Of a stretch of 64,000 bases of DNA, positions 2,301 through 60,470 are shown one piece after another. The translations under genes and the position numbers were made by a program. Numbering within the stretch: the stretch's first letter is position 1; the number at the start of each line of letters is the position of its first letter. Source of the DNA: a virus. Taxonomy: Duplodnaviria; Caudoviricetes. The notes under the pieces are model-generated. The model worked only from the letters and a program-made list of their open reading frames with translations, did not search any database and was not told where the DNA came from. The stretch is from the IMG/VR virus record IMGVR_UViG_638275818_000001, positions 32,001 to 96,000 of that record, one strand, 5' to 3'.

Positions 2301-2419
2301 ACATAAAATGTCTATTTTAAAATTGTTGAAAATTAAATTAAATATATTAACTAAAATAAGAACAATATATCTACTGATAGCATATATTATTAGTAGATAT
2401 ATAGGGGGAGGTATTATTT

Positions 2420-2743
2420 ATGGATAAAATCATAAGAGAATTACACAAAGCATATGATATTTTTAATGAAAGGAAGTTTAATGGTGAAGGAGTAAGAGAT
2501 GGTTTATTAAAATTTGATTTCGCTATATTTGAAGATAAAGAACAAAACAAATTAAAATGTTTAATTGAGTACGATGGAGAGTTTCATTATAAGAAATATT
2601 ATGTTGAACAAAACTTTGAAATACAACAAATACACGATCAACGGAAAGATAATTACTGCAAAGAGCATAATATTAAATTAATTAGAATTCCATATTGGGA
2701 ACAAGAGAATTTATTACATATTTTAAAAGAGAAATTAAAGTAG
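2420..2743 (+). CDS. Vsr/DUF559-like PD-(D/E)XK endonuclease fragment, probably a chimeric remnant
   Basis: FDFAI..IEYDGEFHY..DQRKDNYCKEHNIKLIRIPYW; GGAGG RBS. Confidence 0.55.
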   Translation: MDKIIRELHKAYDIFNERKFNGEGVRDGLLKFDFAIFEDKEQNKLKCLIEYDGEFHYKKYYVEQNFEIQQIHDQRKDNYCKEHNIKLIRIPYWEQENLLHILKEKLK

Positions 2744-2907
2744 TTAGTAAGGAAAGTGGTATTGGAATTAAGTGCCTATACTGTGAAACTGACTTTGAGG
2801 AGTTAGAGGATAAAAAGAAAGAAGATAAATAAGATTTATAACAATAAATTAAAACAACATACATATTAAAAAATAAATTTAGAAGTATAAAAGGAGGAAA
2901 TACGAAT

Positions 2908-3180
2908 ATGAAATGTTTTGGTGAATATAGTGATGATAGAGTTTGTGGTTTATGTAGTATATGTAACAAAGAAGAATTTAACAAATGTAAAAACGAATAT
3001 GATGAAAAAATGGAATTAAATAATAAATTAAATAATATACAAGCAAATTGTCCACATAGACGTGAAGGTTGGGATGAATATCAACGTTATGACAAGTGTG
3101 ATATAAAACCTTGTCAAGATGATGAATGTTATGTAACTTTAACATGCAAACAATATTTAGAAGAATGTGACGACAGTTAA
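2908..3180 (+). CDS. Cys-rich hypothetical protein
   Basis: AGGAGG RBS, 90-aa ORF. Confidence 0.7.
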   Translation: MKCFGEYSDDRVCGLCSICNKEEFNKCKNEYDEKMELNNKLNNIQANCPHRREGWDEYQRYDKCDIKPCQDDECYVTLTCKQYLEECDDS

Positions 3181-3267
3181 AATACAATTATACGAACAAT
3201 TCAAATTAAATTTACATATTAAAAATGATTAAAAAAATAAAAGCATAAATAAAGGAGAAGTAATAAT

Positions 3268-3819
3268 ATGAAGAATACAATTGTTATAAGTGGATTTCCA
3301 GCAGTAGGAAAAAGTTATCTATTTAAAAATAAAAAGGAATTAAAAATATTAGATTCAGATTCTAGTCAATTTTCTTGGATCAGTCAAGGAATAAGGCATC
3401 CTAACTTCCCTAAAAACTATATGAAACATATAAAAGATAAGATAGGCAAAGTAGATGTTATATTAGTGTCTAGTCATAAAGTTGTACGAGATGCTTTAAA
3501 AGCAAATAATATTAATTATATTATAGTTTACCCTTCAATATCATTAAAAAATGAATATATACAGAGATACAAGGAAAGAGGAAATAACGAAGGATTTATC
3601 AACATGATTGATGAGAATTGGGATAGCTTTATAAGTGAGATTGAAGAAGATACATTCCCAACTAAACTAAGACTATGGGGAGGAGAATATTTAAAAGATA
3701 TTTTAATTAAAAAGTATTGTCCCATATATCAAGAATTTTGTACAGTAAAACAAACTAATGCAGACGAATATGAAGGGGATCCATGTTGTAGATGTAATAG
3801 CATGAAGAAATTAATGTAA
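3268..3819 (+). CDS. P-loop NTPase / nucleotide kinase-like protein
   Basis: Walker A GFPAVGKS near N-terminus; RBS. Confidence 0.65.
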   Translation: MKNTIVISGFPAVGKSYLFKNKKELKILDSDSSQFSWISQGIRHPNFPKNYMKHIKDKIGKVDVILVSSHKVVRDALKANNINYIIVYPSISLKNEYIQRYKERGNNEGFINMIDENWDSFISEIEEDTFPTKLRLWGGEYLKDILIKKYCPIYQEFCTVKQTNADEYEGDPCCRCNSMKKLM

Positions 3820-3843
3820 ATATAAAAAGGGAGGAATGATAAT

Positions 3844-4434
3844 ATGAGTTTTGATATTAGTAAACATAACCTAAAAGCTTTAAAATTTAGAGATGAATTA
3901 ATTGAGTTGCTTAAAAAATATAAATGCAGTTTGTCGACTACAGGAAAAGATGATAGGAATATGGTTTTAGAATTTCATGATAAGGAATTAAATCAATGTC
4001 AATCTTACAGAATGACAGAGGAATGTGAAAATTATAATCTATACGCAGAAAATGATAATAGTTGTATTATGGATAAAGTAATCAAAGAAGCTTTTAATAG
4101 AGATTATGGTGGAATGAGCGATCTAAATAATGGACAAGTTACATATGATATAATAACGAATGATACGAATAAGGCTGAATCAAAATTAATAGAAATATAT
4201 GATAAATTAAATCTAAATGGTGAAGTTAAATATTTTGCATGGGCTAAAAATACAAAATATATACTATTAAAAAATGGTGAATTTTATCGTTGGATTAAAC
4301 CTAATACAACAACTAGTAGAGGATATAGGTGTAGAAAAATAATTATAGATAGAAATATAACAATGGAAGAATTGTATAGTAATATACTTCCTATATGTAG
4401 GACTAAAGGACTTGAAGATGTAGAGATATTCTAA
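3844..4434 (+). CDS. Hypothetical protein
   Basis: GGGAGG RBS, 196-aa ORF. Confidence 0.7.
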   Translation: MSFDISKHNLKALKFRDELIELLKKYKCSLSTTGKDDRNMVLEFHDKELNQCQSYRMTEECENYNLYAENDNSCIMDKVIKEAFNRDYGGMSDLNNGQVTYDIITNDTNKAESKLIEIYDKLNLNGEVKYFAWAKNTKYILLKNGEFYRWIKPNTTTSRGYRCRKIIIDRNITMEELYSNILPICRTKGLEDVEIF

Positions 4435-58827: not shown

Positions 58828-58933
58828 TCAAATTACTAAAATTAAATTAAAAAATAAATTAGTTTACAAAAAATAAAAAGTCCCCTATACAATAGAAATA
58901 ATTATATAGGGGATGAAAGGTGGTTTATAAGTA

Positions 58934-59602
58934 ATGGAAAATGCAAATATACACAATAAAAACTTAGAAATAATATGTGACATGGATGATGTATTGGTTA
59001 ATTTATCTGAATTTGTAGTGAATCAATACAACAAAGATTTTAATGATAATATGAATTGGCAAGATAACAAATCTTATTGGTGGGGAGATTGTAAGAAAGC
59101 ACCTAAATCATATTTTGAACAATTATTACTTAAAAAAGGTACTTTCATTAATCCTAAGCCAACAGAAAACGCAATTGAGACTTTAAATAAATTACATGAG
59201 GAAGGATTTAAAATAATATTCTGTACTTACCCTCAATACGATTCTGATTATTGTATAAAAGAAAAGATACAATGGTTGCAACAATACTTTAAATGGTTTA
59301 GTGTAAATGAAAATCTAGTATTTACTTATAATAAAGAATTATTAGCTAAATCAAATAGGATATTGCTTGATGATAATTTAGATCATATATTTTCTTTTAT
59401 AAATAATGGAGGAACAGGTTGCATATTTAATCAAGGTTGGAATGAAGTAATGAACAGAAGATTTATAGGATATAGAATTAATAAAATTGAGGAGTTATAT
59501 ACCGTAGTACACAATGTAGAAAGTGAATTGTCAACTAAAAAATGTTATAAAACAAATATATTAAAAGAAATTAGTTTTCATAATAAGTATTATGTAAAAT
59601 AA
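58934..59602 (+). CDS. 5'(3')-deoxyribonucleotidase (HAD, NT5C-like)
   Basis: DMDDVL; KIQWL; LLDD. Confidence 0.85.
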   Translation: MENANIHNKNLEIICDMDDVLVNLSEFVVNQYNKDFNDNMNWQDNKSYWWGDCKKAPKSYFEQLLLKKGTFINPKPTENAIETLNKLHEEGFKIIFCTYPQYDSDYCIKEKIQWLQQYFKWFSVNENLVFTYNKELLAKSNRILLDDNLDHIFSFINNGGTGCIFNQGWNEVMNRRFIGYRINKIEELYTVVHNVESELSTKKCYKTNILKEISFHNKYYVK

Positions 59603-59630
59603 ATTTTAAATGTAAACTTAATATTTACAT

Positions 59631-60278
59631 ATGCTATTTAAAAAAATATATCAAAGGAGATGTTGCTTTATTAGTAATAATAAGAAACCAATATTAAAAC
59701 TTATATCACCAATCCCACCTTCAGTAAATCATTACTTAGCACCTAGACCATTTATAATGACTAAGAATGGTAAAAAAGTTCCTATGGTCACAATGTATGA
59801 AACTACTGAAGCTAAGAAATATAAAAAAGAATTTATTAAATATGTAAAAGAAGAAATTAGAAAACAAAAATGGGATATTAACTGTACTAAAGATAAGCAT
59901 TTTTATTTTGATACGATATTTCATTTTGATAGGGTAGATAAAGACGAACAAAACTACTATAAATGCTTATGTGATGCATTAAATGGACTAGCTTATATAG
60001 ACGATAGAAATATATTAACTAGATGTTTTAAAATTGATTACGATAGTATTAATCCACGCATAGAAATAACTATTCATCCAGTTGATTACATAGGAATATT
60101 TAACAATGAAAATGAATTAAACAAATTCAAAAATACATATTGTGATAATTGTACAAGAGGAACAAAGAACAATTGTAGTATATTTAAAAACGCTATTGAA
60201 GGTAAAGTAGGAAAGTTGTATGAGATTTTAGATATAAAAGATATGAGGTGTAATAAATTTAAACAAAGAAAATCCTAA
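59631..60278 (+). CDS. RusA-family Holliday junction resolvase (start uncertain)
   Basis: PPSVNH; DEQNYYKCLCDAL..IDD; PRIEITI. Confidence 0.8.
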   Translation: MLFKKIYQRRCCFISNNKKPILKLISPIPPSVNHYLAPRPFIMTKNGKKVPMVTMYETTEAKKYKKEFIKYVKEEIRKQKWDINCTKDKHFYFDTIFHFDRVDKDEQNYYKCLCDALNGLAYIDDRNILTRCFKIDYDSINPRIEITIHPVDYIGIFNNENELNKFKNTYCDNCTRGTKNNCSIFKNAIEGKVGKLYEILDIKDMRCNKFKQRKS

Positions 60279-60292
60279 AATAAAAGTTATTA

Positions 60293-60397
60293 TTTACATA
60301 GTGAGTGAAATATGGTATTATATACATATCTCAAGCGAGGGTTTTTTATTTAAATTATGGATTTAGAGAACTAGATTAATTTCTAGTTCTCTTTTTA
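60293..60397 (+). ncRNA. Candidate ~70-nt small RNA with own promoter and terminator
   Basis: TTTACA-17-TATTAT with TG extension; agagaactag/ctagttctct hairpin plus T-run; no ORF. Confidence 0.4.
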
Positions 60398-60470
60398 TAT
60401 GTGGGTATTTATTAATTTAATTGTATTTAAAATTCCTGTTTTATTGTTTCTTCAATTATCTTTCTTATAA

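Follow-up and report, generated by a model that had tools for sequence, protein, structure and literature searches.

Comparison of a 64,000-nt stretch of viral DNA (hereafter the window; bases 32001–96000 of the single 185,683-bp record IMGVR_UViG_638275818_000001, 26% G+C) with its relatives supports the short palindrome TAAAA-N6-TTTTA as a dispersed element which borders swappable gene units. The record is identical to plasmid p1 of Clostridium botulinum strain Stockholm, a toxin-converting group III phage-plasmid, and the window harbours genes for replication and nucleotide metabolism, the botR/HA/ntnH/bont locus, topoisomerase genes and the gene of an Xer-like tyrosine recombinase. The motif is specific to a phage lineage, two-fold symmetric and all-or-none in character, is conserved together with its spacer in collinear order and lies at junctions between homologous and unrelated DNA. 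Because the palindromes mark the borders of the units, the accessory genes appear to be exchanged on a fixed scaffold of conserved sites. An original prediction based on the same stretch had described ten of the palindromes and interpreted them as an integron-like array of accessory cassettes.

All ten perfect copies are present, and an eleventh was added at 39974 (Table 1). These 11 copies compare with 2.71 ± 1.74 expected from 100 dinucleotide shuffles of the window, none of which reached 11, and every other spacer in a scan from N0 to N14 occurs 0–7 times. When the intergenic segments were shuffled separately, nine N6 sites stood against a mean of 0.62 and none of 1000 shuffles reached nine; N6 is the only spacer enriched, in agreement with the fixed spacing on which the original prediction relied. 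The sites had been described as intergenic or overlapping a stop codon, and 11 of 11 indeed lie outside the coding sequences annotated in the RefSeq table, by which the status of the window's sites was judged, the copy at 5792 falling on the stop codon of a methyltransferase gene. The absence of sites among the replication genes was likewise found, the palindrome-free stretch extending from 11707 to 25514. The near-copies, put forward as a further class, did not hold up: sites that deviate by no more than one mismatch show no excess in the window (62 versus 51.3 ± 7.1 expected) and therefore carry no weight as a class, and the named copies at 9569 and 49581 have two mismatches.

The relatives compared comprise three group III phages, D-1873 p1, BKT2873 p1 and p1BKT015925, and a distant phage-like contig of 124,753 bp from Terrisporobacter mayombei, a member of another bacterial family. 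In whole records, N6 sites number 31 in the window's genome (21 intergenic according to our own model of open reading frames (ORFs); 3–13 for any other spacer from N0 to N14) and, relative to the other spacers from N0 to N12, 30 in D-1873 p1 (3–14), 35 in the first 200 kb of BKT2873 p1 (1–13), 30 in the first 200 kb of p1BKT015925 (5–13) and 24 in the Terrisporobacter contig (18 intergenic; 1–10). Over the same range no N6 excess was detected in the first 100 kb of the co-resident host plasmid pCLG1 (26.5% G+C; five versus 4–9) or in the 143-kb IMG/VR phage G002 (four versus 2–11), and three other distant records contain two, two and four sites versus seven, one and one for the reversed pattern. 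Since the excess is found in five phage records and neither in a host plasmid of equal G+C content nor in a distant phage, the motif is a property of the phage lineage and not a product of A/T-rich DNA or of the host. The five motif-bearing records are the four closely related group III genomes and the Terrisporobacter contig, and G002 is the single complete motif-free comparator; the DNA polymerase of the window's phage is 56% identical to that of the Terrisporobacter contig and 51% to that of G002. A further record, L029, carries the sites of BKT2873 and was therefore rejected as an independent new lineage. Approximately 20–28 intergenic copies are present per phage, most of them in the variable early/accessory arm. 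This agrees with the clustering in variable regions claimed earlier, as does the lower conservation of the neighbourhoods of the sites (1.23 versus 1.52 for the null, p = 0.02).

A chance origin from A/T-rich intergenic DNA is refuted for the set as a whole and retains virtually no probability. The arms do consist of A and T only, and some copies look accidental, namely 39974, the one at genome position 182646, which holds a ribosome-binding site, and several poorly conserved ones in coding sequence; the earlier caution that some copies may be due to chance was thus appropriate for individual sites, not for the set. The failure of all intergenic shuffles to match the observed count, the restriction of the enrichment to N6 in five records and the lack of an excess in the host plasmid are incompatible with such an origin.

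The relationship between the phages is best seen at the level of individual sites. The four group III phages have identical 16-mers, spacer included, in one and the same succession, with collinearity of the shared sites in 6 of 6 genome pairs, and every site possesses its own spacer, extending the variation of the spacer pointed out in the original prediction. Two random intergenic 6-mers match with a probability of 0.0014, which arithmetically corresponds to less than one chance match per genome pair. The DNA between the anchors differs profoundly. The slot between the spacers AACTCA and TGTCTA measures 2,376, 1,578 and 1,006 bp in three phages with 0% mutual cover, and in the slot CATATC–AACTCA p1BKT015925 shares nothing with the other three phages. 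Single anchors are joined to up to four different left flanks among four genomes, as exemplified by site 5792, which is present in four of four phages with a different left flank in each. The 16-mer of site 2304 recurs in D-1873 and BKT2873 next to unrelated left flanks, that of 27367 in BKT2873 and BKT015925 with both flanks unrelated; in BKT2873, moreover, site 11692 is fully kept between diverged flanks, 53621 is kept with a different right flank, and 60428 retains its arms with two spacer bases changed. In the eight pairs of two perfect copies whose flanks differ at no fewer than 10 of 60 positions, changes amount to 1 of 48 spacer positions versus 102 of 480 flank positions. Over all 19 diverged pairs they amount to 19 of 190 in the arms, 12 of 114 in the spacers and 190 of 1,140 in the flanks, and the poorly conserved orthologous copies among these look like chance copies.

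Islands of identity may be as short as 18–31 nt with both flanks unrelated. An exact-island search at 18 nt mostly returned repeats resembling the AATTAAATTAA box (see below), CRISPR repeats and ends of insertion sequences (IS), all of them non-syntenic, and the palindromes as the syntenic class; at 14 nt the search was uninformative, as chance matches of A/T-rich DNA dominate. Beyond the window, genome position 10684 carries a 26–39-nt repeat (AAATGGCAAGG...) whose copies occupy several non-syntenic positions in all four phages and are flanked by unrelated DNA; it may be the end of an IS or some other short mobile repeat.

For the shared intergenic palindromic 16-mers of the six genome pairs (n = 69), the 40-nt flanks are homologous on both sides in 22 cases, on one side only in 31 and on neither in 16. 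Accordingly, 47 of the 69 are junction sites, compared with 2,360 of 27,761 (8.5%) unique shared intergenic control 16-mers (Fisher p = 6e-34, a value which overstates independence because the controls overlap one another and the six pairs share ancestry). On the non-homologous sides, identity breaks off no more than 2 nt from the site in 39 of 53 cases and continues for 3–9 nt beyond it in 14 of 53, versus 5.7% for the null, so that about a quarter of the junctions are located just outside the site.

Individual gains and losses illustrate this behaviour. The claim that the palindromes 4619 and 5792 bracket the methyltransferase gene was borne out, as these two sites enclose the gene, which D-1873 and one public run lack. 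In D-1873 the slot is empty and the two sites are 38 nt apart; in a contig of run X3, position 4636 is joined to 5791 and 35 other letters separate the palindromes. The joint of the insertion/deletion relative to D-1873 lies in an imperfect direct repeat between the palindromes, both of which remain. Since the empty slot keeps both sites, a simple excision between flanking sites is disfavoured. By contrast, a 2.4-kb deletion of D-1873 between 9246 and 11692 leaves one hybrid site, in which the 16-mer of 9246 is fused to the right flank of 11692; the joint corresponds to the boundary between spacer and right arm, the homology of D-1873 starting at 11702, the last spacer base beside the right arm. 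Further joints were derived from the contigs of four public runs aligned over window positions 2200–12100. Runs X2 and X3 have 8553–9244 replaced up to the left edge of site 9246 (the joint runs from 8553 to 9244 or 9245, the replacement affects 324 letters, and the shorter of the matching sides has 126) and join 10809 to 11691, and a contig of X3 joins 2324 to 7614. Other joints connect 5933 to 9300, between two promoter repeats, and 6097 to 7551, at an IS element. Among the 15 joints listed, out of 25, a palindrome lies no more than 5 nt from an end in five cases. A joint from 5477 to 9258 seen in three runs was not counted, its matching side having 21 letters and nothing resembling a palindrome being present at 5477. 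The IS element just mentioned is of the IS200/IS605 type (tnpB; window 6093–7562) and is absent at this place from D-1873 and from the contigs of runs X3 and X4; the latter two carry 84 other letters there, and the element is very abundant in both runs.

The symmetry of the motif extends beyond its arms, the fuller form being A-TAAAA-N6-TTTTA-T. Over 99 distinct contexts, position −1 is A in 72 and T in 24 cases and never C, position 17 is T in 79 and A in 17 cases and never G, and the spacer edges favour T at position 6 and A at position 11; the four central spacer bases are free and lack self-complementarity. The outer T..A pair flanks 31 of the 64 AAAA-N6-TTTT sites of the window's genome and 30 of 68 and 35 of 71 in relatives, compared with 1–13 flanked sites at the remaining spacers from N4 to N9 across the three genomes (5–10 in the window's genome). 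In intergenic DNA between co-oriented genes, pooled from five records after removal of duplicates, there are 83 perfect N6 sites versus 4–7 at N4, N5, N7 and N8. Sites with one mismatch are not enriched in this set (105 versus 98–177 at other spacers), nor are compensatory double changes (38 versus 27–53), and changes compatible with a G.U pair on the sense strand (7) are no more frequent than the mirror class A.C (10). The graded copies expected of a loose operator family are thus missing here. Because one-mismatch copies and compensatory variants are unenriched, the signal is, as far as sequence statistics reveal, an exact two-fold symmetric recognition site in double-strand DNA and not a hairpin kept for pairing.

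The sites might alternatively work in RNA, as small hairpins which terminate, stabilize or mark transcripts for processing between cistrons. Their intergenic placement, often just past stop codons or ahead of ribosome-binding sites, and a few copies with stems of up to 10 bp (genome 30745, −10.1 kcal/mol; window 2304, −10.7 kcal/mol) are compatible with this scenario. We consider it very improbable, since compensatory variants and a G.U bias are lacking, the symmetric flank preferences indicate double-strand DNA, and the predicted folds are mostly weak (25 of 31 sites weaker than −5 kcal/mol; full arm pairing in 11 of 31). In addition, an Rfam search of the window gave no match, and a terminator scan of positions 1–12500 found two terminator-like sites, neither on a palindrome; with this negative scan and arms of A and T only, intrinsic terminators composed of a G/C-rich stem and a T run were rejected. 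Sigma-70 promoters were rejected as well, because inspection by eye revealed no consistent −35 hexamer at 16–18 nt; the promoter scan was at the shuffle level overall (101 found versus 101.4). Public RNA runs contained just 5–7% of the words sampled.

With respect to the genes, the palindromes often lie from −3 to a few tens of bases past the preceding stop codon and ahead of a ribosome-binding site or a conserved box. Their place is at the upstream end of a gene unit, and what follows is the AAATTAAATTAAA box, a promoter of the sigma-A type or a ribosome-binding site. AAAATTAAATTAAA is the commonest intergenic word of the genome; the AATTAAATTAA box occurs in 45 copies and the 12-mer AATTAAATTAAA in 36, of which 30 are intergenic, as against two box copies in 100 kb of the host plasmid pCLG1. 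The box follows the orientation of the neighbouring genes, as judged by eye, and precedes a TTGACA −35 hexamer by 6–20 nt or a ribosome-binding site by 8–25 nt. Its start (with at most two mismatches) is found within 15 nt downstream of 34 of the 89 intergenic palindromes versus 9% for the background, and within 30 nt upstream of 19 further ones; several homology junctions fall within it. Strong TTGACA-17-TATACT or TAATAT sites are located downstream of 5792, 9246 and 11692, and many other palindromes directly precede a ribosome-binding site without a promoter. In the Terrisporobacter contig, a ribosome-binding site with a start codon lies no more than 30 nt away from 10 of 18 intergenic sites, versus 18% for the background, and some entire intergenic spaces measure only about 36 nt.

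Two further repeats accompany this arrangement. Early promoter modules recur at 5900–6030, 9270–9340, 11740–11850, 25080–25200, 28640–28720 and 47780–47870, each in the order box, TTGACA, 17 nt, TATAAT-like hexamer, conserved leader (taaatgtag...ggag), second box and ribosome-binding site; two of them are joined in the public contig linking 5933 to 9300. The element TTGATnnATAAGGG has three exact copies at 4583–4596, 11656–11669 and 53585–53598, each 36 nt start-to-start ahead of a palindrome (22 nt between them), and similar stretches precede palindromes in BKT2873 and the Terrisporobacter contig; the pattern is at chance level once two mismatches are allowed.

Table 1. Palindromes, exchangeable slots and associated elements (window coordinates)
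Feature	Position	Strand	Remarks
Palindrome	2304..2319	.	spacer TGTCTA; 4 nt past stop of 765-aa gene, 11 nt before AATTAAATTAA box
Palindrome	4619..4634	.	spacer TGATTA; left border of methyltransferase slot
Palindrome	5792..5807	.	spacer TTTGAG; overlaps stop codon of C-5 methyltransferase; right border of slot
Palindrome	9246..9261	.	spacer ACTTGA; box 10 nt downstream, then TTGACA-17-TAATAT promoter-like site
Palindrome	11692..11707	.	spacer GTGCAA; TTGACA-17-TATACT promoter-like site downstream
Palindrome	25514..25529	.	spacer TTCATC; 7 nt past box, 27 nt ahead of start codon
Palindrome	27367..27382	.	spacer CTCACA; between convergent genes
Palindrome	35366..35381	.	spacer TTGAGA; 23 nt before start of variable 121-aa gene
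Perfect match	39974..39989	.	A/T-only spacer AATTAT; divergent promoter region of HA genes/ntnH
Palindrome	53621..53636	.	spacer GAATAC; 34 nt before unannotated 74-aa ORF, 22 nt past TTGATnnATAAGGG element
Palindrome	60428..60443	.	spacer TTCCTG; convergent genes; 450 nt beyond end of recombinase gene; 5 nt from minus-strand box
Degenerate copy	49581..49596	.	two mismatches; aligns to perfect copy at p1BKT015925 96669
C-5 cytosine methyltransferase slot	4635..5791	+	empty in D-1873 and run X3
Five-small-gene slot	9262..11691	+	missing from D-1873 (one hybrid site left); BKT2873 holds 6.6 kb there
Xer-like tyrosine recombinase	60894..61847	-	Pfam Phage_integrase 8.7e-24, SAM-like N-terminal domain 5e-10; candidate only
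AATTAAATTAA box	2331..2341	+	adjoins site 2304
Boxes beside palindromes	9272, 25496, 35333	+	60412 on minus strand
Box examples	2331, 5911, 6010, 7598, 9272, 9596, 11833, 25083, 25187, 28645		window

Site 35366 forms the right end of the conserved nrdD–dUTPase block, and the homology block of BKT2873 stops 8 nt past it. The toxin locus does not follow this pattern: it had been thought to be bracketed by sites, but no perfect site brackets it and the homology blocks shared with the relatives end elsewhere, near 35697 or 35808, within the neurotoxin gene (47035) and at 47626. The match at 39974 is probably not part of the boundary system; its flanks are 95–100% conserved in all relatives, and hence it is never found at a junction. 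TTTACA and GTTATA hexamers are present just upstream (39925–39960) in the divergent HA/ntnH region, which presumably resemble promoter boxes of the BotR/TcdR sigma group. The ORF next to site 53621 (53671–53895) is preceded by a good ribosome-binding site, matches a PHROG over its full length (3.5e-52) and is absent from the PLSDB gene table of the record. Just past palindrome 2304, a 107-aa protein (2420–2743) matches only the C-terminal part of HNH/homing-endonuclease families (PHROG 559, 1.5e-19). The Terrisporobacter contig contains a match of 47% identity to this protein, which may represent a DNA-binding remnant that stands alone. An ordinary terminator-like hairpin, a perfect 11-bp inverted repeat with a 6-nt loop and a T run (60365–60392), follows the RusA gene 36 nt before palindrome 60428.

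Inverted arms around a short asymmetric centre recall tyrosine-recombinase core sites such as Xer/dif, lox and FRT, in which a centre of 6–8 bp separates the arms and the identity of the spacer decides on pairing. Such a geometry was part of the original prediction and is retained insofar as only N6 is enriched and the arms are symmetric, with a conserved arm of 6–7 bp; the tyrosine recombinase assigned to 60894–61847 was also recovered by Pfam (Table 1). In this scenario, the 5–6-bp arms would bind the enzyme and the 6-bp spacer would act as the overlap of an ordered cassette-exchange array. Because every spacer differs, sites within a genome would not recombine with each other, and matching sites of co-infecting phages would exchange the intervening DNA. 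The exactness of the motif around precisely 6 bp, the collinear, site-by-site conservation of the spacers, the islands with both flanks unrelated, the retention of both flanking sites by slots, as a double exchange predicts, the abrupt end of identity on most non-homologous sides and the deletion jointed at the spacer/right-arm boundary are consistent with it. So is the distribution of the recombinase: each of the palindrome-bearing phages compared has a homologue, the one in the Terrisporobacter contig being 24% identical and its ORF apparently ending in a palindrome, and none was detected in G002. However, the arms of known core sites span 9–13 bp, dozens of sites per genome are atypical of them, the overrun of 3–9 nt places some junctions outside the site, and two junctions unite sites of different spacers. 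The neighbouring junctions in box and promoter repeats fit a homology-driven exchange. Moreover, the recombinase resembles an ordinary Xer-type enzyme, which a circular plasmid prophage may need for dimer resolution: it is below the cut-off of every NCBIfam model, the best ones being Xer-type. A search for a larger inverted repeat near its gene as its own site found ordinary hairpins only. Its presence/absence profile rests on a single negative genome. We therefore regard core sites as an unlikely identity of the palindromes. A swap of slot contents between co-infecting relatives by the Xer-like recombinase at heterospecific sites, with gene order kept, is rated as similarly improbable. Engineered cassette exchange uses heterospecific spacers, and if the array were of this kind it would represent a viral counterpart of recombinase-mediated cassette exchange distinct from integrons.

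Integron attC sites, one per cassette, are long imperfect palindromes with paired inner and outer boxes. The present phages share with integrons the separation of accessory genes by palindromic sites and a gene content that varies among relatives, and the part of the original prediction that assumed borders of exchangeable units stands. The integron itself does not: the window's phage encodes no IntI-type integrase (the recombinase scores 32.6 bits with the integron integrase model TIGR02249 versus a cut-off of 265), the sites are 16–18 bp long with exact 5–6-bp arms and thus not attC-like, many units have promoters of their own, the order of the sites is conserved, and the empty methyltransferase slot keeps two sites 35–38 nt apart.

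A purely regulatory function, with the palindromes as operators of a dimeric phage regulator such as a many-site repressor and junctions accumulating only because gene starts tolerate them, also has to be weighed; an operator role had been named as an option in the original prediction too. Operators of 434/P22-type repressors are palindromes of 14–18 bp with conserved outer half-sites and variable central bases; about six occur per phage, at two promoters, without a genome-wide array or conserved site-specific spacers. Stoperators, in turn, are asymmetric and oriented with transcription. Those of cluster A mycobacteriophages, an example of many-site phage repression, number dozens in a temperate phage and are short, near-exact and scattered over its small intergenic spaces (PMC9283540, PMC6550527); a monomeric repressor is reported to bind them (PMC9283540). 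The present site differs from them in its symmetry, flank preferences included, and in its location at mosaic junctions. An operator is suggested by the exact, symmetric motif with half-sites one helical turn apart, by the many dispersed intergenic copies, by their proximity to ribosome-binding sites in the Terrisporobacter contig and by a MarR-like winged-helix protein which, together with an integrase pair, shows the same profile as the recombinase, being common to the palindrome-bearing phages and not found in G002. Yet regulation as such leaves unexplained why spacers are conserved amid changed flanks and why islands exist with both flanks replaced, and control intergenic 16-mers are rarely found at junctions. 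A halo of weaker one-mismatch sites, usual in operator sets, is missing, and the distances to promoters vary from 28 to 50 nt. We thus consider regulation as the sole function of the palindromes doubtful.

The account we tentatively favour, at somewhat less than an even chance, is a boundary or operator element which is read by a phage protein and doubles as an anchor for short-homology recombination. A phage-encoded dimeric protein would bind the palindromes, and related phages would exchange DNA by recombination in or right beside them, presumably via short homology. The sites would thereby act as the fixed anchors of a slot architecture, the DNA between them being swapped, lost or replaced. 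Anchors are preferred over core sites because junctions also use the neighbouring box and promoter repeats, some are outside the site and sites of different spacers have recombined. The closest parallel is provided by the promoter-early stem-loops (PeSLs) of T4-type phages (Arbiol et al. 2010, PMC2839356; Comeau et al. 2014, PMC4122927), which were proposed as cassettes for short-homology exchange between such phages (PMC2839356). Excised mini-circles are a further characteristic of PeSLs. As described in these papers, PeSLs are short repeated intergenic modules between a stop codon and the next ribosome-binding site with an A/T-rich stretch and often a sigma-70-type promoter, are concentrated in hyperplastic regions beside small genes of unknown function, and form the start or end of insertions, deletions and replacements between related phages. 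The palindromes, too, are often placed between a stop codon and the next ribosome-binding site. The concentration in variable regions and the junctions at the motif are likewise observed here, as seen from the junction counts, the neighbourhood conservation and the contig joints. In contrast, the PeSL stem-loop, within a conserved span of about 100 bp, is reported as stable and often a G/C-rich terminator, whereas the palindrome, an exact motif of A and T with an invariable 6-bp spacing, folds weakly, shows no covariation and is conserved over 16–31 nt; furthermore, the conserved spacer is peculiar to each site, the position of a site within the series is fixed, and the slots keep both flanking sites. 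By analogy, the palindromes may work most like PeSLs, minus the stem-loop terminator.

Several observations weigh against this account. A plain operator needs no conservation of the spacer, anchors of 16–25 nt are very short for homologous recombination, and the parallel to PeSLs suffers from the lack of a stable terminator hairpin. Among the ends of merged BLAST blocks relative to D-1873 and BKT2873 (hits shorter than 200 bp or below 80% identity excluded), only 9 of 120 lie within 25 nt of a site; the excess is clear against an intergenic-matched null (2.9, p = 0.002) and weaker against all-intergenic placement (5.0, p = 0.07). Because so few block ends are near sites, most mosaic junctions must be located elsewhere, and others indeed fall in the box, immediately past the −35 hexamer, on start or stop codons, at the ends of IS elements or within genes. 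The earlier expectation that breakpoints coincide with the sites consequently holds for the enrichment of junctions and for the one at the spacer/arm boundary, and fails for the quarter just outside the sites and for most block ends. The binding protein was not singled out, as a profile with one complete palindrome-free comparator leaves several candidates, among them the Xer-like recombinase, the integrase pair and the MarR-like protein. Finally, the gene model was crude (greedy ORFs of at least 60 aa), and BKT2873 p1 (202,722 bases) and p1BKT015925 (203,287) entered the comparison with their first 200,000 bases only.

A description of the motif was not found in print, the original c-st genome paper and all supplementary files lying outside the scope of the search; a literature search for the motif yielded just one archaeal paper on an unrelated matter, and the accessible part of the group III genome paper (PMC3098183) makes no mention of it. 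Phage genomes have a mosaic structure, and a long-standing debate concerns the question of whether their modules are joined at special linkers or at random with later selection. The present lineage offers an unusually clean case for this debate, as the sites are exact, easily recognized and stable in identity and order despite the turnover of the intervening genes. Since such sites occur in the four toxin-converting phage-plasmids as well as in a remote relative found in another bacterial family, the linker question becomes testable. The sites also provide a coordinate system by which the accessory gene content of these phages can be compared and typed.

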